The notes under the pieces were generated by a model that was given only the letters and a program-made list of their open reading frames with translations, was not told the DNA's origin and searched no databases. A program made the translations under genes and the position numbers. Below are positions 2,861 through 63,939 of a stretch of DNA of 64,000 bases, one piece after another. Source of the DNA: Candidatus Kaiserbacteria bacterium (GTDB lineage Bacteria > Patescibacteriota > Minisyncoccia > Phycocordibacterales > UBA2100); NCBI GenBank assembly GCA_016217925.1, contig JACRFK010000003.1, positions 143,656 to 207,655 on the forward strand. Direction: 5' to 3'. The stretch's first letter is position 1. Each line of letters begins with the position of its first letter.

Positions 2861-5800
2861 AGTCCGCAAGGTGCTGCTGTTGGGTTCGGGGGGCCTTCGC
2901 ATCGGTCAGGCGGGTGAGTTTGATTACTCCGGCTCGCAGGCTATCAAGGCGCTCAAAGAGGAGGGTGTCAAAGTCGTACTGATGAATCCGAATATCGCAA
3001 CGGTGCAGACGGATGATAAGCTCGCGGACACCGTGTACTTTCTCCCCCTCACAGAACACTTCGCAACGCAGGTGATAAAGAAAGAAAAGCCCGATGCCAT
3101 ATTGCTCTCCTTCGGCGGGCAGACGGCTCTCAATCTCGGACTCTCGCTCGAAGAGCGCGGAGTCTTGAAAAAGTACAGCGTACGCGTACTCGGCACATCG
3201 GTCGCCACTATCCGCGACACCGAGGACCGCGAGCTATTTGTGCGACGTCTTTCGGAAATCGGTGTAAAGACCGCGCAAAGTCGGGCGACAGAAAATGTAC
3301 GAGACGCACTGAAAGCCGCGGGCGAGATAGGCTACCCGGTAATGATGCGTTCGGGCTTTGCACTCGGCGGTGAAGGGTCGGGAGTCGTTCACAACGAGAA
3401 GGAATTATCTGTGAAGCTAACGGAGGTGTTCAGGAACGTACCGCAGGTTCTCATCGAGGAAAACCTGAGCGGCTGGAAAGAGGTCGAATACGAAGTGGTG
3501 CGCGACCGCGCCGACAACTGCATCACGGTGTGCAATATGGAAAATCTCGATCCGATGGGCATTCATACAGGCGAGAGCATCGTCGTCGCGCCGTCGCAGA
3601 CGCTATCGAATGCCGAGTATCACGGACTTCGCGAGATAGCGATTAAAACGATACGCCACTTGGGAATTGTCGGAGAATGCAACATCCAGTATGCCCTTCA
3701 TCCGCAGACAGGTGACTACCGCGTCATCGAGGTGAACGCCCGCCTCTCGCGCTCTTCCGCGCTCGCATCGAAAGCCACAGGATATCCGCTCGCCTTCGTG
3801 GCCGCCAAGCTCGCGCTCGGATACAAGCTCACCGATATCAAGAATTCAGTCACTGGCAAAACGACTGCCTGCTTCGAGCCCGCACTCGATTACCTCGTCC
3901 TCAAAGCCCCACGCTGGGACCTGACAAAATTCGAGAACGCGGCACCTCGCATCGGTACCGAAATGAAAAGCGTCGGAGAGGTCATGGCCATTGGCCGCTC
4001 TTTCGAAGAAGTGCTGCAAAAAGCGCTTCGCATGCTCAACGTCGGCGTAGACGGATTCGTGCCCGCAAAAAACCCTTGTCCGAAAACCCGGTATTTGGAC
4101 GAAATACAGTACCCGACGACTCGTCGCATCTTTGCGCTCGCGGAAGCGCTGCACGACGGCGTCAATGTGGCCAAGCTGCACGACCTATCCAAAATTGACC
4201 CGTGGTTTCTGGAAAAGATGGGCAATATCGTCGGACTGGAACGTGAACTTAAGAGAAAGAAGTTGACCAAAGAGCTACTCGCACGCGCAAAACGCGCGGG
4301 ATTCTCCGATAAGCGCATTGGAACGTTGAAGAAAACGACTGAAGTGGCCGTCCGCTCTCTCCGCGCGCGCTTGCACGTGTTACCCGTCGTCAAACAGATA
4401 GACACACTTGCGGGTGAATTCCCCGCACAGACCAATTACCTGTACATGACCTACCACGGCACCGAAAACGATGTTGCGCGCGGAAAAAATCAGGTTGCCG
4501 TTTTGGGAAGCGGCCCGTATTGCATCGGCTCATCAGTCGAATTCGATTGGTCCTGCGTACAGGCGCTCAAAACTTTGAAGGCGGAAGGGCGCAACACCAT
4601 CATGATCAATTCCAACCCCGAGACCGTTTCGACCGATTACGACATGTCCGACCGGCTGTATTTCGAGGAACTTTCGCTTGAGCGCGTACTCGACATTGTC
4701 GATTTTGAGCGACCTCTCGGCGTCGTTATCTCAACCGGCGGCCAGATACCCAACAATCTCGCACTTCCGCTGCAGCGCAACAAGGTCAGAATTCTCGGCA
4801 CGGACCCGCAAAATATCAACCGTGCCGAAGACCGTCACGTATTCTCCAAATTGCTCGACGAGCTCGGTATTGACCAGCCCGAGTGGGCGGAACTCACCAC
4901 TCCCGCAGCAGCGGCGAAAGCGGCCGAGAAACTCGGCTACCCGGTCCTCGTGCGTCCCTCATACGTCCTCTCGGGTGCCGCGATGAAGGTGGCCTATGAT
5001 GAGAAATCTTTGCTTGAATTCCTTCAGCGCGCCGTTGACGTATCGTCCGACCACCCCGTTGTGATTTCAAAATTCATCGAGAACGCGCGCGAGATAGAAA
5101 TAGACGGCGTGGCACACAAGGGCGCGCTCGCAATCTACGCCATTACCGAACACATCGAAAATGCCGGCACGCACTCGGGCGACGCCACCGTGGTATTGCC
5201 GCCCCAGCGCACCTACCTCGAGACCATCCGGCGCGCCAAGCACATCACGAAGGATATTTTGAAGGCGCTGAAGATTACCGGCCCCTTCAATATGCAATTC
5301 ATCGCCAAAGACAATCACCTGCTTGTCATCGAGTGTAATCTGCGCGCCTCGCGCAGTTTCCCGTTCGTCTCAAAAGTGACGGGACACAATTTCATCAACC
5401 TCGCGGTACGCGCCATGCTAGGCAAAGATATCGCCGGCCACTATCGGACCGTCGAGCTTGATACCGTCGCCGTGAAATCGCCGCAATTTTCCTACGGCCG
5501 CATCAAGGGGGCCGACCCGCACACGAGCGTGGAGATGGCCTCGACTGGCGAAGTGGCGTGTTTCGGCGATTCCTATTCCGAGGCACTTCTCAAATCTATG
5601 ATGGCCGCGGGTTTCCGTTTGCCGAAGAAGAACGTACTTGTATCTCTCGGCAAAGAGGAGAATAAGATCAAGATGCTGCCGGCTGTAGCCGTGCTCGCCA
5701 ATATGGGATTCAAGCTCTACGCGACCGAGCACACGGCGGATTTTCTGCGCGAGAACAACATCCCGTGCGAGAAAGTCTATAAGATAAGTTCAAATATTGC

Positions 5801-7542: not shown

Positions 7543-10287
7543 TTATTTAATCATCCTTTTCTTCAATGTGCGTTTCAAGTAGTATCCCGTATGCGAGCCG
7601 TCGGTCTTTGAGACTTCTTCGGGTGTGCCCTTTGCTACGATTTTTCCGCCTCCTGCTCCCCCTTCGGGCCCCATGTCGATGATGTAATCGGCGCATTTCA
7701 AGACGTCGAGATTGTGCTCGATAGCTATCACGGTATTGCCGCGTTCGACAAGCTTCTGGAGAATATCTACAAGCTTTGCGACGTCGTCATAGTGGAGTCC
7801 GACCGTCGGCTCGTCGAGCAGGTAGACGCTTTTTGTAATGAGCGGACGGTAGAGCTCGGACGCGATTTTCACGCGCTGCGCTTCTCCGCCGGAGAGCGTC
7901 GTCGCACTTTGACCGAGTTCCAGATATCCGAGCCCGACGTCAATAAGGCTTTGCATTCTATCGGATACCGCAGGTATATCTTCGAAAAACGCGTACGCTT
8001 CCTCGACGGTCATGGAGAGCACATCGTGAATACTCTTTTTCTTGTACTTCACTTCGAGCGTCTCCTTCATAAAGCGCTTCCCGTTGCACACATCGCAGGT
8101 CACGTACACGGTCGGCAAAAAGTGCATCTCGACTGCGACAAGCCCATTGCCTTGGCATGCCTCGCACCGTCCGCCTTTCACGTTGAAAGAGAAGCGCCCG
8201 GGCCCCCAACCGCGCGCCCGCGCCTCTTCGCTCATGGCAAACATGTCGCGGATATGTGTCCACGCCCCCGTGTAGGTCGCTGGATTGCTGCGCGGGGTGC
8301 GGCCGATTGCGGATTGGTCTATCAAAATCGCCCGCCCGAGGTACTCGGTGCCCGAGAATTCTTTTGCGTTGTAGATTTTGGCGGTGCGATATCGTTTGTC
8401 GAAACGCGCCTGCAAATTGCGGTGAAGGATTTCGTAGAGAAATGTAGACTTTCCCGAGCCGGAAACACCCGAAACAACGACAAACTTTCCGAGCGGTACA
8501 TCCACGTTGAGATTTTCGATATTGAACTTCCCCGCGCCGCGTATTTTGATCTTGCCTCGGTCGGCGGTACGTCGCGTTTCGGGAATCTCAATCCTTATTT
8601 CATCCCTCAAATATTGCAACGTCCGTGAGACGTGCGCGCCTGCCCCGTAGGAAGCTTTGCTTTCCTTCGGGGAGCCGGATTTGTTGGTTTTAGCGGTGAG
8701 CAAGTCTTCAAGCCACCCATCCACAACCACTTCCCCGCCGTGTACGCCCGCACCGGGGCCGAGGTCAACGATGTAATCCGAAGCAAAAATGGTGTCTTCG
8801 TCGTGTTCAACGACGAGAACGGTGTTGCCGAGGTCGCGTAAGTGTTTCAACGTCTCGATGAGCTTGTCGTTGTCGCGCTGATGCAAGCCGATTGTCGGCT
8901 CGTCGAGCACATAGAGCGCGCCCACAAGCCCCGAGCCGAGCTGTGAGGCAAGCCGGATGCGTTGCGCCTCACCGCCCGACAAGGTATTCGCCTTTCTATC
9001 CAGCGTCAGGTATTCGATGCCCACATTGAGCATGAACTGCAGGCGCGAAGTTATCTCCTTGATGACAACGCGGGAAATGTCTTGTTCTTTTTTCGTGAGT
9101 TTCAGTTTGTTGAAAAAGTCCATCGCATCTTCGATTGAAAGGGACGAGAGATGTACGATGTTCATGCCCGTGGCCGGACCGTCGTTACTCTCCGGTTGCT
9201 TCACGTGTCCGAGAAATACATTTAGTGTTTCCGGTCGAAGACGCGCGCCCTCACAGACGTCGCATGCCTCATCGCCAAAGAAATATTTCGTCCCCAACCC
9301 TTTGCACTCCGGGCACGCGCCGTAGGGTGAGTTGAAGGAGAAGAGGCGCGGTTCAATTTCAGGAAATGAAAAGCTGTCGTACGGACACATGAATTTGGCC
9401 GAGACGATACGGGACTCCCCCGCCGCGTCGGTAATTTTTACCAATCCTTCGCTCTCGTGCAGCGCGCGCTCGATAGCCTCCGATGCGCGCTCATGCGCGG
9501 CTTTGGCGTCGTCCGCAAATTCAGAGACGAATATTTCGTCAACGACAATATCAATGTCGTGCTTGAAATGCTTCTTGAGGTCGACGCGCTCGCGGAGTGA
9601 CTTTTCCTCACCGTCTATAACGGCCTTCTCGTACCCTTTGTTGAGCATGTCGTAAAGGAGCTGGTAGTATTCTCCTTTCCGACCAACTACCACGGGAGAC
9701 GATATCCGTATCTTCGCTCCTGAAACTCCCGCTGTCAGCTTTCCTTTTCCCCGAGAACCGACCTCTGTGCTTTTCCCCGAGGTCGGTTCTCTGTGCTTTC
9801 GAGCCGCTTCGACGATGGAAAGCACCGATTCCAGTATCTCTTCGTTGGAAAGTTTGCGGACCTCACGGCCGCAAATCGTGCAGTGCGGCTTGCCCACACG
9901 CGCGTACAGCACGCGGAGGTAGTCGTAAATCTCGGTGATGGTCGCGACCGTCGAGCGCGGGTTGTTGGAGCGGGATTTTTGGTCTATTGAAATTGCGGGT
10001 GAAAGTCCCGTTATCTCGTCCACATCGGGCTTTTGCATTTGGCGTAAAAACTGCCTTGCGTATGCGGAAAGCGATTCCACGTACTTGCGCTGGCCCTCGG
10101 CAAAAATGGTATCAAAAGCAAGCGAAGACTTCCCGCTTCCGGAAAGCCCCGTGAAAACGACCATCTTGTTGCGTGGTATCTCAACACTGATGTTCTTCAG
10201 GTTGTGTGTCCGCGCCCCTTTGATGACGATTTTACCTGCCCCGACCGTAGCGTCGGGGTCTGAACCTTGTCTTCTTGAATTTGGCAT
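7543..10287 (-). CDS. uvrA: Excinuclease ABC subunit A
   Basis: Two ABC ATPase modules with zinc-finger insertions and conserved UvrA blocks throughout. The listed ORF extends to 10473, but the conserved N-terminus begins at MPNSRRQG...[15 protein letters not shown], so the start is probably near 10287. Confidence 0.9.
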
Positions 10288-16817: not shown

Positions 16818-16835
16818 GCGGAAAATATACCATAC

Positions 16836-18303: not shown

Positions 18304-18322
18304 AGTGCTATTCTAGCAAAAA

Positions 18323-19417: not shown

Positions 19418-20875
19418 CTATTGCTTAGGCCGCATAAGCGGGAATATCTGCGCTTCGTGGGCGGGGCGGTTCTCGAGGAACGAAAAGAGGCGCTCGGAGA
19501 CGCCGAAGCCGAAAGCCGGCGGCATGCCGTGTTCCATCGCACGAATGTACTCTTCATCGAGCCGTTGCGCTTCATCATCGCCGGCGTCGCGCAGTGCCTG
19601 CTGCTCTTCGAATCGCGCCCGCTGGTCTAGTGGATCGTTCAATTCGCTGTATCCATTGCCCACTTCACTCCCCGCAATGATTATCTGAACGCGGTCCGCT
19701 TTCTCAGGGTCTTTTACCATCTGTTTTGCAAGTGGCGAAAGATAGACGGGCACGCCTCTCAAAAATGCCGGGCCGGCGATTCCTTTACGTATCTTCTTCC
19801 ACAGATGGTCTATCGCGCGTGCTTTATTGGGTGATTGGCCGAAGGTAACGCCCACGTTCTTCGCGGCCTCTATTGCCTCGTCCTCGGTGCATGAAATGGC
19901 GTCAATACCGAATTCCTTTTGAATCGCGGTACAAAAATCTATCTCCGGCCATTCCTCGGCAAAATCGACAGTGTGCTCGCCTATCTCGAAGGTATAGCGT
20001 CCGTATGTTTCTTTGACGATGTGGCGGTATAACTCCTGTAAAAACTTCATTCCCAATCTCGCATCAGCGAAAGCCTCGTAGCTCTCAAGCTGGGTGTAAT
20101 CTTGCAAATGCTCCCGCGATTGTCCCTCATTGCGGAATACCCGCCCTATTTCGAAGACTTTCGGGAAGCCCGCTATGAGCAATTCCTTTTGCCACAGCTC
20201 CCCTGCGCAAATCCGCATGTACACGTCAATATCGAGTGCGTGGTGGTGGGTTTTGAAGGGCCGAGCATCAGCGCCACCGGGAGTCGTCTCGAGCACGGGT
20301 GTTTCTACTTCGAGGAAGCCCCGCGAAAGATAGAAATCGCGCGCCGACTGCCAGAATTTCGCGCGTCGAATGAACATCTTGCGCACCTCCTCATTGAGCA
20401 ATATATCGAGGTACCGCTGCCGTAAGATGAGCTCTTCATCTTTGAGACCAAAATGCTCTGTAGGTATCGGTAGCAAGGATTTCGCGAGCATTCGCCATTT
20501 CTGCACCTTCAGCGAACGTTCTCCGCGTTTTGTCTTGAACATCGTTCCGGAGGCTTCGATAAAATCACCGGCGTCCACGGTCATCGCGAAGAGGTCGAAT
20601 ACCTTTTCATCAATATCCGCCTTTTGCAGTACGAGCTGCATGCGACCGGTACCATCAAAAATATCGGCGAACATGATGCCGCCCTGTCCTCGCAGTGACA
20701 TAACGCGTCCTCCCAGGTGGACTTTGTGCGTACTTTTTTCTAGCTCGTCAAATTGAGCGATGAGATCGGCGTTGCTTGTGTCGCGGTGTGAATCCGAGGG
20801 GTACGCTTCCATCTCGGCCGCTTTCAGGATGTCGAGTTTTTTCAGCCGCTCGGCACGGATATCTTGCTCGCTCAT
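19418..20875 (-). CDS. lysS: Lysine--tRNA ligase, class II
   Basis: OB-fold anticodon-binding domain plus class II motifs (FRNEGQSREH..., GGADARPF). The start MSEQDIRAE at 20875 overlaps the uORF stop as ATGA. Confidence 0.9.
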   Translation of the reverse strand: MSEQDIRAERLKKLDILKAAEMEAYPSDSHRDTSNADLIAQFDELEKSTHKVHLGGRVMSLRGQGGIMFADIFDGTGRMQLVLQKADIDEKVFDLFAMTVDAGDFIEASGTMFKTKRGERSLKVQKWRMLAKSLLPIPTEHFGLKDEELILRQRYLDILLNEEVRKMFIRRAKFWQSARDFYLSRGFLEVETPVLETTPGGADARPFKTHHHALDIDVYMRICAGELWQKELLIAGFPKVFEIGRVFRNEGQSREHLQDYTQLESYEAFADARLGMKFLQELYRHIVKETYGRYTFEIGEHTVDFAEEWPEIDFCTAIQKEFGIDAISCTEDEAIEAAKNVGVTFGQSPNKARAIDHLWKKIRKGIAGPAFLRGVPVYLSPLAKQMVKDPEKADRVQIIIAGSEVGNGYSELNDPLDQRARFEEQQALRDAGDDEAQRLDEEYIRAMEHGMPPAFGFGVSERLFSFLENRPAHEAQIFPLMRPKQ

Positions 20876-20976
20876 CCCGCTATTTCTATATGAATAAAGG
20901 AGATATGTAAGCAAAGTTCACCGCAGTCCATATTGGTGCAAGCGAGAAGTAATCGTTCTGAAAGGGCGGGACTCAT
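20872..20976 (-). promoter_or_regulatory. Inverted-repeat leader module with 34-aa uORF MSPALSERLLLACTNMDCGELCLHISFIHIEIAG, copy A
   Basis: Arms are catcccgctatttctata at 20873-20890 and gaaagggcgggactcat at 20960-20976. The uORF TGA overlaps the lysS ATG. Copies B and C are at 31864-31959 and 43339-43404. Confidence 0.55.
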
Positions 20977-21018
20977 GATGTCTTAATACTAGCAAATTTC
21001 CGACACAATGCAGAGCGG

Positions 21019-21270: not shown

Positions 21271-24200
21271 TTACCGCTTTACGTCGGGCGGCAGAGCGCC
21301 GGGCCATCGGTACACAAGGACGGGAATGAGTATCAGCGTGAGTATCATGGCGAATGAAAGCCCGAAAAGTATCGCCAAAGCGAGCGGTCCGAAAAGCCCT
21401 GATGCGAAGATGAGCGGCACCATGCCTATCACTGTCGTTATCGTCGTGAGGAAAATGGGGCGTAAGCGTGTGGTCGCTGCTTCGGTGAGAATATCGATGA
21501 ATTGCTTCCCTGCTCCCCGTTTCAAACGCTGAATGATGGCGTCCATGAGAATGATGGCATGGTTGATGATGACGCCGGCAAGCGCAATAACGCCCATGAC
21601 CGACGGGAACGAGAGTGGTTGGAGCGTAAGAGCAAGGCCCCCGAAAACACCAATGAGCGAGAGGGGCACAAGGAGTAGAAGGAAGCCGGCAAACCGGAAC
21701 GAATCGAATGCGAGTACCAATATCACGAAGGTAAGTACTATCCCCGCGATGAGCGCGTATCCCATCTCCATGAATGATTTGTTCGTCTCCTCGTTCTCGC
21801 CCCCCACCGACATACGGACACCTTCATCCATATCCGCCTCTGTGAATGCTTTGTTGAAAGCGGCAAGTACTTCGGCGGTACTGTGACCTGGAAGCACGTC
21901 AGAGGTGAGTGTAGCGACGCGTTCCCTATTTTCGTGGGTAATAGATGTGTTGCTTTGTGCGATGGATTCAGAGACGAGCGAGCCCAAGAGGACCGTCCGC
22001 CCCGTGGACGTGATAAGCGGTACCTGACGCAGACTGCTGAGCGAGGTGTAGGACGATTCGTGCGGGTCGGTCGTATTGGGATTGAGATTGAGGGAAACCA
22101 CGATGTCCACGTTCTTCTCTCCTCCCGTGAGAGAGGTGGCGGTCACACCGGAAACCGCCGTGCGTAAGGTAGAGGCGATCGCCGCGGGGGAGAGTCCGAC
22201 GAAAGCAAGTTTGCCGCGGTCGATGGAAAGGACGAATTGTGTACTGTCGTATTTGTTCGATGAATTCACCGCGGTCACACCCGGTGTTTGCTCCAATACT
22301 TTGCGCGCCTTTACGAGTGTGTTGTTGAGCGCGGTACGGTCTTTGCCGAGGAATTTGATGAGGACCGCGGCGCCGACCGGTGGCCCGCCCGAGGGTTCGC
22401 CCGCGCGGATCTCTGCGATGTGGATGTCCGCGAGCGTACTTTTTACGTCGGCGAGTATTTCGGTCGAGGTCTGTGCGCGGTCTTTGACGAGATTGATGGT
22501 GATATTTGCGAACCGCGAGTCCGCCGACACGAACCCGTCCGAACTGGAGAACGGGCTGAGTGTGCCGACCGTTGTGATGAGCGAGGAAAAACGCGGATCA
22601 TCGAATAGCTTGTCTTCCACGGCGCGTGCGGCCAAGTCCGTACGACTGAGGTCGGTCCCCTGTGGCATTTCCATGTCTACGTACAAGAATTCGCCGTCGG
22701 CTTGCGGAAAGAAAGATACGCCCAAGATACCGACTACGGGGAGCGCAAGCGCTACGATGAATCCGGCGAGCATGACCGCAAGAAAGCGGTTTTGCCCGCG
22801 GCGATCTTGGAGGAATGCCTTGAGATGGCTTGCGTACCACTCCCGCGCACGCTGCGCGTATTCTTCTTGGCGCTTCATAAGCGCGGATTCTTCCTTGGCC
22901 GCCATCATATTCGCAATCGTCGGCACGAGGCCTAGCGCAACGAAGATCGATGCGAGCAAGACGAATACGAGCGTGAACGGGATCGAAGCGATGAATTTGC
23001 CGACGATGCCGGAAATGAAGAAGAGCGGTACAAAGAACGCGACCGTTGCGATGGTACCGCCCATAAGCGGCCAGGCGTACTCGCGAAGAGCTTCGAGCGC
23101 GGCACGCCGCTTGTCGCCATAGATGCGCGTGCGTGTATGAATAGCTTCAACGATGACAATGCCTGAGTCGACAAGAATGCCGATAGCGAGGATGAGCGAG
23201 AAGAGCGAAACGATGTTGAGCGTGTTGCCGCTGTAGAGCAATCCGATGAACGCCATGAGGAAAGAGAGCGGAATGGAAAGGCCCGCGACGACCGCCTCGC
23301 GCCATCCTATTGTGATGAAAAGCGCAAGCATGACGAGGGCCACGGTCTCAAGGCCCGTTTGCGTTAGTTCTGAAAGATTCTTTTGCACTTCATCGCCCGC
23401 GTCGTATGAAACGACGACGTCGCTTCCTTGCAGTATCCCCTTTTGGAGGTCCGCGAGCTTACCTTTCACTGCCTTCGTAACAGTGGTGATGTCATACCCG
23501 CGCACCTTCAATACGCCCAAAGTCATGGCTTGTCTTGCGGGTGCGCTGCCCACGGAAATACGTGAATACGATGTGGCCTTCTGTACCCCGTCCGAGACAT
23601 TTGCAATATCTCGCATATAGATCACTTGCCCTCCGACATTGAGAATGGCGACGCTTCCGATATCCTCGACCGTGTCGAGGCTTCCCCTGAACGCGACGGC
23701 GTAAGAAATGTCGTCGACCGTGATCGAGCCTACGGGCAGCGAGGCGTTCGCAGCGGCAATGGCTCCCACTACTTGAGGGAGTGAGATGCCGAGGCGAGCG
23801 ATCTCTTCTTTACGCACAACGACTTGTATCTCGCGATCGCGTACGCCCGAGACCTCTACACGCGATACGCCCTTCACGGTCTGGATTTCGCGCTTCACTT
23901 CTTCTGCAAGCGCCGCAAATTGAGCCGGCGGGAGGTCGGCGCTTACCGATATGAGCTGTATTGGCTGGTCGACGAAATTTACTTCGGTCACTACCGGGGT
24001 CTTTGCTTCAGCCGGTAGGTCAGCCACCGCTTTGTCCACCTCGTCCTTCAGTTTTTGTATGGACCGCTGTATATCGGCTGAGGCGTTGAATTCTGCCACG
24101 ACGACTGAGATGCTTTCCCGAGACGACGAGGTGAGCTTATGCAAGTCTGGAAGATTCGCGAGATGCTCTTCTATTTTGTTGGTAACGAGCCGTTCGACAT

Positions 24201-24375
24201 CTTCCGGCGACGCTCCTGGAAGGACCACTGTGACACCGCCTACTGGTATCTGTACCTCAGGTGTTGATTCCCTTGTCATCGAAAGCATCGCCGCACCGCC
24301 AACGATAACGAGCCCTGTTATGACGAGAAGGGTGAATTGCCGCTTTTCTATAAAAAACCTCCAGAGCGGTACCAT
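21271..24375 (-). CDS. RND efflux transporter permease, AcrB/HAE family
   Basis: 1034 aa with 12 TM helices and two large periplasmic loops. Typical AcrB N-terminus. Confidence 0.9.
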   Translation of the reverse strand: MVPLWRFFIEKRQFTLLVITGLVIVGGAAMLSMTRESTPEVQIPVGGVTVVLPGASPEDVERLVTNKIEEHLANLPDLHKLTSSSRESISVVVAEFNASADIQRSIQKLKDEVDKAVADLPAEAKTPVVTEVNFVDQPIQLISVSADLPPAQFAALAEEVKREIQTVKGVSRVEVSGVRDREIQVVVRKEEIARLGISLPQVVGAIAAANASLPVGSITVDDISYAVAFRGSLDTVEDIGSVAILNVGGQVIYMRDIANVSDGVQKATSYSRISVGSAPARQAMTLGVLKVRGYDITTVTKAVKGKLADLQKGILQGSDVVVSYDAGDEVQKNLSELTQTGLETVALVMLALFITIGWREAVVAGLSIPLSFLMAFIGLLYSGNTLNIVSLFSLILAIGILVDSGIVIVEAIHTRTRIYGDKRRAALEALREYAWPLMGGTIATVAFFVPLFFISGIVGKFIASIPFTLVFVLLASIFVALGLVPTIANMMAAKEESALMKRQEEYAQRAREWYASHLKAFLQDRRGQNRFLAVMLAGFIVALALPVVGILGVSFFPQADGEFLYVDMEMPQGTDLSRTDLAARAVEDKLFDDPRFSSLITTVGTLSPFSSSDGFVSADSRFANITINLVKDRAQTSTEILADVKSTLADIHIAEIRAGEPSGGPPVGAAVLIKFLGKDRTALNNTLVKARKVLEQTPGVTAVNSSNKYDSTQFVLSIDRGKLAFVGLSPAAIASTLRTAVSGVTATSLTGGEKNVDIVVSLNLNPNTTDPHESSYTSLSSLRQVPLITSTGRTVLLGSLVSESIAQSNTSITHENRERVATLTSDVLPGHSTAEVLAAFNKAFTEADMDEGVRMSVGGENEETNKSFMEMGYALIAGIVLTFVILVLAFDSFRFAGFLLLLVPLSLIGVFGGLALTLQPLSFPSVMGVIALAGVIINHAIILMDAIIQRLKRGAGKQFIDILTEAATTRLRPIFLTTITTVIGMVPLIFASGLFGPLALAILFGLSFAMILTLILIPVLVYRWPGALPPDVKR

Positions 24376-24378
24376 GAG

Positions 24379-26073
24379 CTATGTTCCTCCCGAAGAGGAG
24401 CCGCCTTCGGCGGAGACTTCCACGTTTTCCCCCTCGCGCAAACCTCGCGCGTCGACGACGATACGCATATCAGGAGTAAGCCCGCCGGAGATGACGACGC
24501 GCTCGCCAAGCAGTGCTCCGAGCTTGACCTCATGTGCCGTAAGGACGCCGTTATCAAGAGTGAAAACGACGGAGCGTTCTGATTCGACCTTAACGGCTGA
24601 TATCGGTATCGTGATCCGAGCCGTGGTAGGTGAAGTACCCACCGAGGCACGAGCTATCGTCACCAGCACCGACTGCCCGTTGGTGAGGTCGCGAGCATTG
24701 CTAACGCTTATGCGTACCTCTATTTTTTTCGTGAGAGGATCCAGCGCAGGTGCTAGGCGCGTAACCACTCCCGTGGCCCCATCCATCGTTACCCTTTGCC
24801 CGACCGTTATGTCACGGGCGTCATTTTCTGTGACGTACGCCAGCACTTCCAATGAACCGTTGTTCGCGACCGTGAGAACGGGCGTGGTCATTTGTACATA
24901 ATCACCGCGCTTGAGAGAAAACGAGTTGATCGTCCCCGATATCGGTGCGCGTATGATGGATTTCTCAAGGTTCGCTCGTGCGGCAGCAAGGCCTCCTTGG
25001 GTTTGTTTTAGAGCGGCCCGCGCACTCGCCACATCTTCAGCCTGACCTCCGCTTATACCTTGTTCGAGATTCTTTCGTGCCACGCTGAGGGCGGCTTCCG
25101 CGGAAACAAGACCCTGCGCGGTAACTGAAAGACTCGAAAGCGTCGTCGTGAGGCTCGACCGGGCGGCAGTTGTCTCGGCGAGATATGTTGCGAGCAGAGT
25201 CGTGGAAATGGATGGCGTCGGGATCCCTTTGTTGAGCGCGTCCACGACGACATCGAGGAAATTGCGGACTTCGCGAACTTCCGATTGCGTAGTCGTGACC
25301 TCTTGCGCAAGATCGGAGTGTATTGATAGGACACTCGAGATAGACGACTCTCGCGCCAGATATTGTGTTATGGCGTCGCGCATGCGTTCTGCTTTGGTCG
25401 TCAAGCTCGAATCGGTAGACACTATGTTGAATACGGCTCCATTAAATCCTGGATTGGTGAACATCTTGTCGGTCGTGCCGCGTACAGCACTGTTTATGCT
25501 TGCGTGAGCCGAGAGGATAGCCGACACCGCTCCTGCACGTGCAGCAGTGAGTGCGGCATCTGCGTTGACAACGTTCGCTTCGAGGATCGCGCGTTGTTCC
25601 GGACGCACTCCCCCTTGAACCTTCCCAAGGTTCGCTTCTGCTCCCTCCACCAAGCCGACCGCAGAAAGTACGGCAGCACGTTCGGATGCGTTCTCAATTT
25701 CCGCCACGATAGTCCCCGCAGTAACGGTGTCCCCGAGTGTACCGGAAACCCGAACTACCTGACCGGATTTCTCTGCACGCACGGTCGCTTCTGATACCGA
25801 ACTTACCTGACCGATTATAGAAAGGGGTGACGTGTCTGCAGATAGTTCAGCGACGGTCTTCACGGTGACGACTTTCAGAGAGGTGGCCGGTAGCTCATCA
25901 ACACGTGTTCGTTGTAATAGCACAAGTGTTACAACGGCTCCTATAATAACGACCGCCGCCAAAGCGCCTTTTTTCCACCCGATTTTAGCGAGCCAGCTAT
26001 CAGCCCGCAAACTTGAGCGGATGAATAAAACGGCTCTAATTATGAGCATTTCCGGATGCATAAGAGAGCGCAC
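24379..26073 (-). CDS. RND efflux periplasmic adaptor (membrane fusion protein)
   Basis: N-terminal TM anchor, long coiled-coil region, lipoyl and beta-barrel domains. Lies directly upstream of the permease. Confidence 0.8.
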   Translation of the reverse strand: MRSLMHPEMLIIRAVLFIRSSLRADSWLAKIGWKKGALAAVVIIGAVVTLVLLQRTRVDELPATSLKVVTVKTVAELSADTSPLSIIGQVSSVSEATVRAEKSGQVVRVSGTLGDTVTAGTIVAEIENASERAAVLSAVGLVEGAEANLGKVQGGVRPEQRAILEANVVNADAALTAARAGAVSAILSAHASINSAVRGTTDKMFTNPGFNGAVFNIVSTDSSLTTKAERMRDAITQYLARESSISSVLSIHSDLAQEVTTTQSEVREVRNFLDVVVDALNKGIPTPSISTTLLATYLAETTAARSSLTTTLSSLSVTAQGLVSAEAALSVARKNLEQGISGGQAEDVASARAALKQTQGGLAAARANLEKSIIRAPISGTINSFSLKRGDYVQMTTPVLTVANNGSLEVLAYVTENDARDITVGQRVTMDGATGVVTRLAPALDPLTKKIEVRISVSNARDLTNGQSVLVTIARASVGTSPTTARITIPISAVKVESERSVVFTLDNGVLTAHEVKLGALLGERVVISGGLTPDMRIVVDARGLREGENVEVSAEGGSSSGGT

Positions 26074-26129
26074 CCTACACTATTTGCATGCCTATGTCAA
26101 TTCTTTTTGGGTTTATAGAAAAGTAAATC

Positions 26130-26160
26130 ACACCCGCGCGGTTGCCCGCGCGGGTGCATG
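26130..26160 (-). terminator. Hairpin terminator after ilvD: cacccgcgcgg-ttgc-ccgcgcgggtg
   Basis: 11-bp GC stem followed on the minus strand by tgatttacttttct. Confidence 0.4.
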
Positions 26161-26182
26161 AGTAGAAGCCGACTGCCGGCTT

Positions 26183-40872: not shown

Positions 40873-41505
40873 TCAAATCCTCAGTTTTTCCGGATTCGTC
40901 GCACGTATCTCTTTGTGAGTGACCTTCCCGTCCGCATCGATTTTGTAGCAATACACTTCCCCGAAACCTATCTCGAGTTCGTGGACCTTATCATCGGCGA
41001 TATTATCAAGATGCTTCACGAGAGCCCTAAGCGAATTGCCGTGAGCGACCACGAGCACATTGTGTCCGGCGAGAAGCTGGGGGTGGATGTGTTGCTCATA
41101 GTAAGGGATAACGCGACCATGCACATCTTTCAGATTTTCACCGTTCAAAATCACGGTATCCCAACCGCGACGGATATCGTGGAACGCTTTTTCTCCCAGC
41201 TCGTCTCTCACCTGCCACTTATCCTTGCCGGTGTGTATACCGTAGTCGCGCTCGTTTAACGCGGCATGAACGTTCGCTTCAAGATCGTGCCTGTTCAACG
41301 TCTTTTTAATCTCGTGCAGCGTCTGGTGTGCGCGCTTTAGCTTTGAAACGTGTGCTTTGTGAATGTCGATATCCCGTAATGCTTCCCCCATGCGTCGTGC
41401 GTCTTCTATCCCCTCCGAGGCAAGATCAACGTCCGTGAGCCCCGTCCACTTGCCGAGCTTGTTCCACTCCGATGTGCCGTGCCTAACCAAAATGAGGTAT
41501 GCCAT
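40873..41505 (-). CDS. gpmA: 2,3-bisphosphoglycerate-dependent phosphoglycerate mutase
   Basis: LVRHGTSEWN motif with catalytic His. Confidence 0.8.
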   Translation of the reverse strand: MAYLILVRHGTSEWNKLGKWTGLTDVDLASEGIEDARRMGEALRDIDIHKAHVSKLKRAHQTLHEIKKTLNRHDLEANVHAALNERDYGIHTGKDKWQVRDELGEKAFHDIRRGWDTVILNGENLKDVHGRVIPYYEQHIHPQLLAGHNVLVVAHGNSLRALVKHLDNIADDKVHELEIGFGEVYCYKIDADGKVTHKEIRATNPEKLRI

Positions 41506-41513
41506 TTGAAGTA

Positions 41514-43411
<1,898 letters not shown>

Positions 43412-43418
43412 TTATATA

Positions 43419-44702
43419 TTAAAGTTTCAAGTTTTCCGCCTCTGCCTCCTGTGTCTTCAGTCCTACGCTCTCGGAGATAGTACGCAACCAGTCCGTCTGT
43501 AGGAGTGTGCGCGCCGCATAGACGGCGGCGGCCATCGCGGCGATGCCGCCTATTGCCAGGCCCCATCGCGGCCCGATGTATTCCCCGGTCAATCCGACGA
43601 ACGGAGCGCCCACGAGTGTCGAGCCGAAAATGGCCATGGACCACAACGACATGACGCGCCCGCGCATATGCGGCGAGGCGGCGAGCTGTATCATCGTGTT
43701 GCCGAGCGAGGTCAGGTTGATGGAGAAAAATCCGACAAACACCATGCCGACAATCGCAAGCGAAAGCGTGGGCATGCTCGCGGTCACCGCGATGGAAAGA
43801 CCGAAGAAAAATGCCGACGCGACGAATTCGTGCGGTGCGATCTGTTTGCGGCTGGCGGCAAAGAGCCCGCCTGCCACCGAGCCCGCACCCATCGCGGAGA
43901 GCAACGCCGCATAATCTGCGGCGGCACCGGCGAAGGTACCCTGCGCGAGGAGCGGCAGGCTCACCTGAAATTCGTACGATAAGGTCCCGATGACGGCCAT
44001 GGCGATAAGTACCGTCTTGATGACGGGTACCGAAGCCGCATACGAAATGCTTTCGAGAAGATGCCCGCGCGGTTTTTCTTCCCGTTCCTCCGTATGCATA
44101 TCCTTTTTGTCCATGAGGAGAAGCATGGCGATGAGTGCGATGAATGAGATCGAATTGGCAAGAAAGCAGAATGCGATACCGACCGTCGCGATGAGAGTAC
44201 CCGCTATCATCGGGCCTACCGCGCGCGCGACGTTTGCCTCGGTGGCGTTCAGCGTAACGGCATTGCGAAGATTGTCGCGCCCGACCATTTCGTGGACAAA
44301 GGTCTGACGCGTCGGATTGTCTATCACGTCGACGAGGCCAAGCGCCATGGCAAAAATAAAAAACATCCACGTCTGGATAAAATCCGTATAGACGAGGATC
44401 GCGAGCGCGAATGCGAGCACGGCAAAGCTTGATTGTGTGATAAAAAGAATGCGGCGTTTATCAAATCTGTCCACAATGATCCCTGCAAAAGGGCCGCCCA
44501 ACAGCATCGGCATAAAGCGGAACGCGAGTACCGTGCCGAGCGCGGTTCCCGAACCGGTGAGCTGCAGCACGAGCCAACTGAGGCCCACCGTCTGCATCCA
44601 ATTGCCCACATGCGAGAATCCCTGCCCTATGAAATAGAGCCGGTAGTTTGGCACCTTGAGCGACGAGAACGTTTGTGTGCTGAATTCTTTTAGTGCTTCC
44701 AT
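43419..44702 (-). CDS. MFS transporter
   Basis: 427 aa with 12 predicted TM helices. Confidence 0.8.
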   Translation of the reverse strand: MEALKEFSTQTFSSLKVPNYRLYFIGQGFSHVGNWMQTVGLSWLVLQLTGSGTALGTVLAFRFMPMLLGGPFAGIIVDRFDKRRILFITQSSFAVLAFALAILVYTDFIQTWMFFIFAMALGLVDVIDNPTRQTFVHEMVGRDNLRNAVTLNATEANVARAVGPMIAGTLIATVGIAFCFLANSISFIALIAMLLLMDKKDMHTEEREEKPRGHLLESISYAASVPVIKTVLIAMAVIGTLSYEFQVSLPLLAQGTFAGAAADYAALLSAMGAGSVAGGLFAASRKQIAPHEFVASAFFFGLSIAVTASMPTLSLAIVGMVFVGFFSINLTSLGNTMIQLAASPHMRGRVMSLWSMAIFGSTLVGAPFVGLTGEYIGPRWGLAIGGIAAMAAAVYAARTLLQTDWLRTISESVGLKTQEAEAENLKL

Positions 44703-46646: not shown

Positions 46647-47426
46647 TTACCGAACTTCAAGAGGCCACGCTAGAGGTAAGGTAAATGGTAAAGGAATTTC
46701 CTCCAGTGGAAGTATGGCCCCAACACCAGAAAGCTCATTTCTACATCCGGAAGAATCCAAAGTGGAGAGTGGCTGTTGTCCAGTAACTGTTTCTCCGTTA
46801 TTACTCTTGAAGAGTCTGCCGTCCACGACTCCACCTGCTTGCGGATTCATACCACCGCTTTGTCTGTATGGTATACCACTACAGTTCTGCTGAAGAAAAT
46901 ATAGGGAGAAACCTGGTCCAACATCAACCCTTGCAGTAGGAGCAGGATTTTGTTCAAAAGATAGAAATATTTCTTGAGAAGGAAAATAAGTAACAAAGTC
47001 GATAGCCCTCGAGTCGGCATTGACTAGGGTGCCAAGATCTTGTCCGCTTGCGTCATAAAGGTGAAGTGTGCTACCGGAATTACCTTTATCACCCGTGTCA
47101 CCTTTGGGACCCTGTTCGCCTGTGTCTCCTTTGTCGCCTTGGATTCCCTGTGATCCGGCATCACCCTTATCACCCTTTGGGCCCGTGGGCCCCTGAATAC
47201 CCTGCGGTCCTTGAGGTCCGGATACGTTCCACGAAAGTGGCTTGTCCTTCCCATGACATTTCTTAAAGAGAAAACCATCACCGATTACATATACCAATCC
47301 CGCCCCGTTTACACAGGCAGATATTGAAGTTCCGGCGGCTAGAGAAAAGCTCCAGAATCCTAGAGAAATTATGGTAATCGCCAATATCAAAATAGAGGTT
47401 CCTACCCATGCAGTGTTCGTTTTCAT
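46647..47426 (-). CDS. Collagen-like triple-helix repeat protein with signal peptide and a C-terminal globular domain
   Basis: About 20 uninterrupted G-X-Y triplets: GPQGPQGIQGPTGPKGDKGDAGSQGIQGDKGDTGEQGPKGDTGDKGNSGS. N-terminal signal/TM segment. Local GC about 45%. Confidence 0.7.
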   Translation of the reverse strand: MKTNTAWVGTSILILAITIISLGFWSFSLAAGTSISACVNGAGLVYVIGDGFLFKKCHGKDKPLSWNVSGPQGPQGIQGPTGPKGDKGDAGSQGIQGDKGDTGEQGPKGDTGDKGNSGSTLHLYDASGQDLGTLVNADSRAIDFVTYFPSQEIFLSFEQNPAPTARVDVGPGFSLYFLQQNCSGIPYRQSGGMNPQAGGVVDGRLFKSNNGETVTGQQPLSTLDSSGCRNELSGVGAILPLEEIPLPFTLPLAWPLEVR

Positions 47427-56382: not shown

Positions 56383-56434
56383 GTCCGCATTATAACCCGT
56401 GGCTGGGGCGAAGTAGATGAGGTTGTAAAATGCT

Positions 56435-63868: not shown

Positions 63869-63939
63869 CTGGGGGACTTGGAATCGAACCAAGATAAACG
63901 CCTCCAAAGGGCGCTGTCCTACCGTTAGACGATCCCCCA
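63869..63939 (-). tRNA. tRNA-Gln, anticodon TTG
   Basis: Reverse complement is TGGGGGATCGTCTAACGGTAGGACAGCGCCCTTTGGAGGCGTTTATCTTGGTTCGATTCCAAGTCCCCCAG. It has a U1-A72 pair, D-arm GTCT/GGAC, anticodon loop CTTTGGA, T-arm CTTGG-TTCGATT-CCAAG and a G73 discriminator. CCA is not encoded. Confidence 0.8.

Follow-up and report, generated by a model that had tools for sequence, protein, structure and literature searches.

Mycobacterial interspersed repetitive units (MIRUs) insert at start codons and carry an open reading frame (ORF) coupled to the host gene by a -4 overlap, an arrangement thought to lessen the cost of insertion (Supply et al. 1997, as summarised in PMC12548453). A module of comparable design precedes three genes in a 64,000-nt stretch of the genome of a Candidatus Kaiserbacteria bacterium (assembly GCA_016217925.1, contig JACRFK010000003.1, positions 143,656 to 207,655), hereafter the window, and MIRUs are its closest known analogue. 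So far as the summary describes them, MIRUs have in common with the module that a short, apparently mobile repeat sits at a start codon and contains an ORF in -4 (ATGA) overlap with the host gene, that the taxon is rich in leaderless mRNAs, and that the ORF points the same way as the genes beside it, being able to overlap the upstream stop codon too. However, the Kaiserbacteria element is a single unit at every locus, ends in inverted repeats of 12 bp, is flanked by a target duplication of 4 bp, and belongs to a phylum of the candidate phyla radiation (CPR). MIRUs are not known to have dyad symmetry and often form tandem arrays (variable number tandem repeats, VNTRs).

Several other repeat families resemble the module in part. 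Like the Correia elements (CREE) of Neisseria and Nezha of cyanobacteria, both MITEs (miniature inverted-repeat transposable elements), it is small and has inverted repeats, a target duplication, no transposase, filled and empty sites and RNA hairpins (PMC3184786). Typical MITEs, however, are similar over their full length and lie anywhere between genes, whereas here only the ends are shared, the site is always a start codon, the orientation is constant and an ORF is maintained. The Rickettsia palindromic elements (RPEs) offer another parallel, that of a selfish repeat tolerated in a gene-dense genome through preservation of the frame (PMC3184786); they join the host protein, whereas the module remains a separate mini-ORF ending at the host start codon. 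REP2 of Neisseria and the Borrelia repeats also lie immediately upstream of genes and bring expression signals including the ATG (PMC3184786). These repeats supply promoter, Shine-Dalgarno (SD) box and ATG, whereas the module has no SD box, contributes one base of the ATG and contains only a candidate promoter. Finally, at its right end, and in several copies also at its left, the module has stop and start arranged as in native ATGA gene overlaps (PMC6728339), with the difference that here the junction would be carried by a mobile element. Our literature searches yielded no description of such elements in CPR bacteria.

The module is quite probably a non-autonomous MITE-like transposable element of Kaiserbacteria and Parcubacteria, with a proposed translational relay that would keep its insertion cheap. 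It probably stays harmless by making the old start codon of its target the beginning of a short frame, which hands the ribosomes to a rebuilt start. The three window copies (A, B and C, also wA, wB and wC) lie on the minus strand before lysS, a histidine phosphatase gene and eno, just where an earlier note on this DNA had placed them. The products of the first two genes have Pfam matches to tRNA-synt_2 and His_Phos_1, and the third is enolase, matched at 100% identity by a protein that NCBI lists for Candidatus Kaiserbacteria bacterium on a 376-kb contig. The lysS region is present also on a Logan contig from SRR12113407. All three copies start with ATGA(A/G)TCCCGCCCTTTC and end with TATAGAAA(G/T)AGCGGGATGA. 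They share ATGARTCCCGCCCTTTC … TATAGAAAKAGCGGGATGA, and their cores of 69, 61 and 30 nt are mutually unrelated. The 18-mer right motif TATAGAAAGAGCGGGATG has three matches in the window at up to three mismatches, compared with 0.05 expected from shuffled sequences. The left motif has three exact matches; three further ones need three mismatches and are at chance level. The module lengths proposed earlier (105, 96 and 66 nt) hold for copies A and C, and copy B is one nucleotide longer than supposed. With coordinates re-extracted from the sequence, and with uORF standing for the upstream ORF of the module, the features are as follows.

20872..20976, minus strand: copy A, whole module before lysS, 105 nt; uORF of 34 codons plus stop, encoding MSPALSERLLLACTNMDCGELCLHISFIHIEIAG
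20983..20988, minus strand: copy A, -10-like box TATTAA, 6 nt 5' of the first ATG; presumed original leaderless lysS promoter
20972..20975, minus strand: copy A, left target-site duplication TGAG
20960..20971, minus strand: copy A, left terminal inverted repeat TCCCGCCCTTTC
20891..20959, minus strand: copy A, variable core, 69 nt, stop-free in the uORF frame
20875..20890, minus strand: copy A, conserved TATA and right terminal inverted repeat, GAAATAGCGGGA, with one G>T change; the final A is the A of the lysS ATG
20871..20874, minus strand: copy A, right target-site duplication TGAG, from which the lysS ATG takes its TG and the uORF its stop TGA
31863-31959, minus strand: copy B, whole module before the His_Phos_1 gene, 97 nt
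31866..31954, minus strand: copy B, element from repeat to repeat, 89 bp, core 61 nt; the His_Phos_1 gene is at 31216-31866
31936-31959, minus strand: copy B, uORF, cut after 7 codons
31955..31958, minus strand: copy B, left target duplication TGAA
31862..31865, minus strand: copy B, right target duplication TGAA
43339..43404, minus strand: copy C, whole module before eno (42050-43342), 66 nt; uORF of 21 codons plus stop
43411..43416, minus strand: copy C, -10 box TATAAT, 6 nt 5' of the first ATG; presumed original leaderless eno promoter
43342..43399, minus strand: copy C, element from repeat to repeat, 58 bp
43400..43403, minus strand: copy C, left target duplication TGAA
43388-43399, minus strand: copy C, left repeat
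43358-43387, minus strand: copy C, core, 30 nt
43354-43357, minus strand: copy C, TATA
43342-43353, minus strand: copy C, right repeat
43338..43341, minus strand: copy C, right target duplication TGAA

The motif is not limited to the window. With one genome taken per species, an exact scan gave 24 loci, to which a metagenome scan added others. The two-arm loci from the species scan are in metagenome-assembled genomes (MAGs) of CPR bacteria, three of Kaiserbacteria, one of Parcubacteria and one labelled Saccharibacteria. De-duplication left 14 unique two-arm copies, counting the three in the window and those in CPR MAGs and metagenomes. The genes behind them are lysS, the His_Phos_1 gene, eno, rplX, map (methionine aminopeptidase), rplI, a rmlA-like nucleotidyltransferase gene and an Hsp20 gene, as well as genes for a HAD phosphatase, an alpha/beta hydrolase (two orthologous loci) and DUF975 and MliC-like membrane proteins. 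No functional theme is seen among them. Single-arm matches in other phyla are due to chance or to an unrelated Bacteroidota sequence. Seven Bacteroidota loci from the species scan (L007, L008, L009, L011, L017, L020, L021) share TATAGAAATAGCGGGATGAATC(G/C)GG(N)GT(A/G)T, an unrelated but conserved sequence that fitted the pattern by accident. The scan of viral_contigs gave no matches to the motif, and the proteins at the window ends were carried only by contigs of 2-4 kb. Conservation of the module at an orthologous position in L019 and L029 was considered and dropped, since the gene neighbourhoods differ and the two copies could equally well have inserted independently at the same start codon.

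The element proper is 58-100 bp long. Its sole ORF is a uORF of 21-35 codons, and it contains no transposase gene. The terminal inverted repeats of 12 bp are imperfect (TCCCGCCCTTTC / GAAAGAGCGGGA): in most copies 11 of the 12 positions are complementary, with one constant C·A mismatch, to which copy A adds a second. The two ends are thus mutually inverse-complementary, as had been claimed. They are flanked by a 4-bp direct repeat TGAN in 13 of the 14 copies, with the variable base matching on the two sides: TGAA…TGAA in 11 copies, TGAG…TGAG in copy A and TGAT…TGAT in L004b. The flanks differ in a telling way at L019, where the left side reads tTGAA (TGA is the stop codon of a Zip gene and TTG the presumed old start) and the right side A+TGAA. 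This means that the A of the new ATG comes from the last base of the right repeat. Judging from the flanks, insertion splits the site between A and TGAN, and the last A of the right repeat together with the duplicated TG regenerates ATGAN. Duplication of all five bases, ATGAN, is a less parsimonious alternative. All 14 copies are located at start codons and in one orientation. For the window, the chance of three out of three copies falling on start codons is about 0.0015, the null being TGA sites that do not interrupt a gene. NTGA is read at 25 of the 52 window starts, and ATGA gene overlaps are common.

Comparison of filled and empty sites points to the same conclusion. For copy C, four relatives with 82-87% identical enolase keep the synteny of the MFS gene and eno and do not have the module; about 90 kb of sequence from these four contains no copies. 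At the empty site L043, L041 and L044 read TATACT, then 6 nt, then ATGAAAAT. The correspondence is near-perfect: L043 has …gaaactctaaTATACTgtatccATGAAAATTGCATCC, and the window has …gaaactttaaTATATAATgcgggcATGA, the element and ATGAAAATCGCATCC. The same comparison also sets …gaaaacctgaaactctaaTATACTgtatccATGAAAATTGCATCC of L043 against …gaaaacttgaaactttaaTATATAATgcgggcATGA, the element (ATCCCGCC…GCGGGATGA) and AAATCGCATCC of the window. The empty site of copy B is perfect. L043 reads aagtttgtactctaacaATGAAGACCATCTA, that is, …aagtttgtactctaaca directly joined to ATGAAGACCATCTA, and the window flanks are identical. The alignment has one gap of 93 nt, made up of the 89 bp and the second TGAA inserted in the window. 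The evidence for copy A is absence in a diverged relative, as opposed to empty sites proper for B and C. In the syntenic Kaiserbacteria relative L035 (about 70% protein identity) lysS reads TATTATccggcgATGG (TATTATccggcgATGGGCGAG) and the module is absent, the window counterpart being TATTAAgacatcATGA, the module and ATGAGCGAG. In the empty alleles the ATGA of the gene lies 6 nt past a -10 box (leaderless type) or after the stop codon of the upstream gene. The dispersed MITE-like unit proposed in the earlier note is therefore borne out by the terminal inverted repeats, the 4-bp target duplication and the empty sites in relatives.

The second property of the module is its coupled mini-ORF. The uORFs had been described as 34, 21 and 7 amino acids long in copies A, C and B, with the TGA overlapping the main ATG in A and C, and this is what the sequence contains. 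In copy A the uORF runs from the start codon that lysS had originally as far as the TGA overlapping the rebuilt ATG. In 11 of the 14 copies the old ATG opens a stop-free ORF of 21-35 codons that ends in the TGA of the new ATGA. The core lengths of these copies are all multiples of three (30, 30, 33, 33, 33, 66, 69, 69, 69, 72 and 72 nt). When cores were shuffled and the frame freed, on average 1.9 copies were open, and never more than 8 over 20,000 trials. Given that they are in frame, 4.2 copies would be expected to be open, and all 11 are. Read in the reverse orientation the same elements are open in only 4 of 11 cases, and the other two frames carry stops. At the level of sequence, these counts show that the ORF is kept by selection: open, in-frame uORFs are far commoner than by chance, in support of a unit that supplies an ATGA-coupled uORF. 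The three that depart from this are wB, with a core of 61 nt, L025, and L023, whose core has 29 nt as against 30 nt in the open ortholog L033. As the middle of the uORF peptide is not conserved, the selected thing would be translation through the element rather than a protein.

The ends of these peptides have a feature of their own. The semi-conserved C-termini (window 20872-20901 and 43339-43368) read (R/K)-x-(I/L)-I-S-I-E-R-A-G-stop, and some codon differences between copies look synonymous (acc/acg/aca; cga/aga; tca/agc). The SecM arrest motif is GIRAG-P. The uORF C-terminus resembles it (GIRAGP), but this may just reflect nucleotide conservation of the element end.

By its context the left ATG is the former start codon of the gene, either leaderless or coupled to the upstream gene. 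This refines the earlier description, which correctly had the upstream ATG open the uORF: that ATG would be the gene's own old start, and the downstream ATG the rebuilt one. The first ATG lies 6-7 nt past a TAnnnT box in wA, wC, L022, L028 and L029, overlaps the TGA of the upstream gene in L004a (rplN), L034, L023/L033 and L019, and follows a stop codon within a few nucleotides in wB and L004b. In copy B the original ATG (31957-31959) is 2 nt past the TAA of a gene for an M29 peptidase; in copy C the -10 box is directly 3' of the MFS gene stop (43419-43421). Such contexts agree with the gene starts of the window in general. A TAnnnT box 5-8 nt upstream is found at 10 of 48 gene starts, compared with 4% of all ATGs, which is a five-fold enrichment, and an SD core is present at only 7 of 48. 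Thus the first genes of transcription units look leaderless, and leaderless mRNAs appear to be widespread in this genome. TAnnnT exactly 6 nt 5' of the ATG, with no SD box, is seen at many genes, e.g. 16826-16831, 18310-18315 and 56389-56394.

From this geometry we infer a termination-reinitiation relay as the mechanism. The original AUG would be translated as before the insertion, either at the 5' end of a leaderless mRNA (with the -10 box 6-7 nt upstream) or by coupling to the upstream stop codon. It would open the ORF of 21-35 codons that runs through the element, the mini-ORF would terminate at the UGA of the new AUGA, and the terminating ribosome would reinitiate on the gene. Termination-reinitiation at ATGA overlaps has been demonstrated experimentally in bacteria and archaea (PMC6728339). 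If the relay is right, insertion would be cheap even in essential genes, and selection would keep the element stop-free and a multiple of three in length. Transposition would need a transposase supplied in trans.

The repeats may also pair in the mRNA, and it is a speculative corollary that the AUG of the gene would then be reached mainly by a ribosome that unwinds the stem. The repeat stem is part of the predicted minimum-energy fold of 11 of the 14 copies, where it begins 4 nt past the first AUG and takes in the second AUG's A and U. Thus the pairing across the start region expected in the earlier note is recovered in most predicted folds; the cores fold no better than shuffled sequences. 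The arms hardly vary. Five substitutions are seen at pairing positions on the left side, all of them compatible with pairing (four C>U within the left repeat, the fifth an A>G at the flanking base of the target duplication), and a double compensatory change is seen in no pair, so that the arm covariation looked for was not found. As transposon ends already explain the complementarity of the arms, it is not evidence for a selected RNA switch, and a claim of RNA covariation was rejected. A bolder proposal, which we consider unlikely, is that the element is not just a tolerated parasite but a portable translational gate. A leaderless or coupled gene would become one with its start locked in the 12-bp stem, which only a ribosome translating the uORF could open; the SecM-like C-terminus could pause the ribosome at UGA/AUG and tune reinitiation, and the transposase may truly recognise start sites of the form A|TGAN, as opposed to selection having filtered its insertions.

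Other explanations of the module account for some of these data. It might be a mobile promoter cassette, in which a TTGCnn -35-like box 15 nt before TATAGA (or 17 nt before TAGAAA) directs a leaderless mRNA, or one with a leader of 2-3 nt, at the rebuilt ATG, the uORF being incidental. In favour of such a cassette, the TATA beside the right repeat is invariant though unpaired, the distance from TTG(C/T)nn to TATAGA is exactly 15 nt in 8 of 14 copies (in one it is 16 nt and in two 18 nt, counted by eye), TATAGAAA is 9-fold over-represented in the window, and the three copies with a broken uORF still precede intact genes. There is also a precedent in the Neisseria REP2 and Borrelia repeats, which carry promoter, ribosome-binding site and ATG (PMC3184786). 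However, TATAGA and TAGAAA have no final T, unlike all -10 boxes of other genes here, and the ATG comes 9 nt after TATAGA, compared with 6-7 nt for the promoters of the genome itself. A scan of the three regions with the sigma-70 consensus found no promoter on the module strand. Moreover, the frame-keeping, the absence of stops and the 3-nt length steps of the uORF are left unexplained by a promoter. We regard the cassette as a tentative possibility in place of the relay; a mobile promoter could also coexist with the relay. The earlier suggestion that TATAGA is a -10 element survives in this form, as a weak candidate for a possible secondary feature. The core features concerned are TTGCnn 15 nt before TATAGA and …TTATCAG abutting TATA (e.g. 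window 20907-20912 and 31900-31905; L004, L028, L029). They could be a -35 box, a subterminal site of the transposase or a codon constraint.

It is very improbable that the module is a regulon operator, or a cis-regulatory RNA leader passed on by vertical descent (riboswitch, attenuator or thermometer), with the hairpin controlling housekeeping genes. This would fit the identity of the arms across genomes with proteins only about 70% identical, the occlusion of the start codon by the stem, and the fact that all of the left-side substitutions keep or improve pairing. This reading is largely refuted by orthologues in close relatives that have no module and precise empty sites; furthermore, the target duplication flanks the module, no function is common to the downstream genes, the cores are conserved neither in sequence nor in structure and, as said, fold no better than shuffled ones, and compensatory double changes are absent from every pair. 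Rfam has no match at gathering score or even at E<=1, the only match in the window being a tRNA elsewhere, which agrees with the earlier opinion that this is not a described leader family. The attenuation that had been suggested there finds no support. The regulon or operator version was rejected, as there is no theme in the downstream genes and relatives have empty sites. Also improbable is the reading as a single-strand hairpin element of the REPIN/RAYT or IS200/IS605 type, which would insert 3' of a fixed tetranucleotide (ATGA) and leave the target unduplicated. The architecture does resemble doublets of repetitive extragenic palindromes (REPs), in that two conserved arms, inverted to each other, enclose a spacer that is poorly conserved and varies in length, and there is an apparent tetranucleotide target. 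However, the fourth flanking base co-varies (TGAG/TGAG, TGAT/TGAT), which together with L019 indicates a true duplication, not produced by that family, and it is on this ground that the reading was rejected. In addition, a single arm is not itself a hairpin, and no Y1 transposase domain was found among 50 ORFs of the window.

Some observations weigh against a transposable element with a relay. No transposase or recombinase was found by Pfam among 50 window ORFs, and no full-length insertion sequence (IS) with matching ends in the window or in about 0.5 Mb of other loci; the search for the latter, over repeat pairs 0.3-4 kb apart, yielded only chance pairs with two mismatches. The copies are not similar over their whole length, sharing only short subterminal stretches (…TTATCAG before TATA; the TTGCnn box). 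Cores that cannot be aligned even within one genome are unusual for a recently amplified MITE family; the ends may perhaps be kept for a host function too. The fourth base of the duplication is informative in two copies only, and L025 has no matching duplication. The database copies came from patterns containing ATG and are thus subject to ascertainment bias, the unbiased ones being the three window copies and L004b. The uORF of wB, L023 and L025 is broken or absent, yet the genes behind it are intact, and therefore the relay cannot be the sole route of expression. Finally, the rplN-rplX junction in 98%-identical strains has a 37-nt spacer or a different insertion; it was rejected as a fourth empty site, since it is not clean. 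As to L025 itself (3722-3821, before rplI), it has both repeats but no ATG, with cTTG on the left side instead of TGAA; a deletion, or recombination between two copies, may have produced it.

The relatives contain at least two other families of small inverted-repeat insertions, located at gene junctions of the ribosomal-protein operon and before eno (L048 2920-3047; L048 4507-4734; L049 4975-5170; L044 ~9957-10000; L041 ~120-182). Members of one, TATACCCCGTGAGAT…ATCTCACGGGGTATA, lie between rplB and rpsS and contain a called ORF of 34 amino acids whose TGA overlaps the rpsS ATG. The other, CCCCTCCCCAATTT…AAATTGGGGAGGGG, is about 190 nt long and occupies the rplN-rplX and rpsC-rplP junctions. 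Insertions with ATGA-coupled mini-ORFs may thus be a general theme of Kaiserbacteria.

Some other features of the window can be mentioned. Genes for ilvD, an HlyD-type membrane-fusion protein and an AcrB-type resistance-nodulation-division (RND) pump (21271-27865) separate the Zip gene from lysS. The syntenic relative (L019/L035) has the Zip gene directly followed by a module, a MliC-like gene and lysS. The ilvD-HlyD-AcrB block looks like an insertion or a rearrangement, and RND pumps are unusual in CPR bacteria. Of His_Phos_1 the window has three paralogues (31216-31866, 40873-41505 and 41514-42053), two of them adjacent and following eno. A protein with collagen triple-helix repeats is encoded at 46647-47426. 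Between 52294 and 54140 an ORF with a pyruvate-kinase barrel, of only 282 amino acids, adjoins an ORF without a Pfam match, and this may be a split or mis-called gene. The tRNA gene that gives the only Rfam match is at 63869-63939 on the minus strand.

For an uncultured CPR lineage, the module is evidence from sequence of a reliance on leaderless initiation and on termination-reinitiation at ATGA, in the form of a mobile element apparently shaped by these rules. For genome annotation, such modules lead to mis-called starts and missed mini-ORFs in CPR genomes. The element would also be a natural compact part of the 'bicistronic design' type, and is a candidate expression adaptor. The convergence with MIRUs would have been reached through a different transposition chemistry, involving inverted repeats and target duplication. 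It suggests that a coupled mini-ORF at the start codon may be a general safe harbour for selfish DNA in gene-dense genomes rich in leaderless mRNAs.

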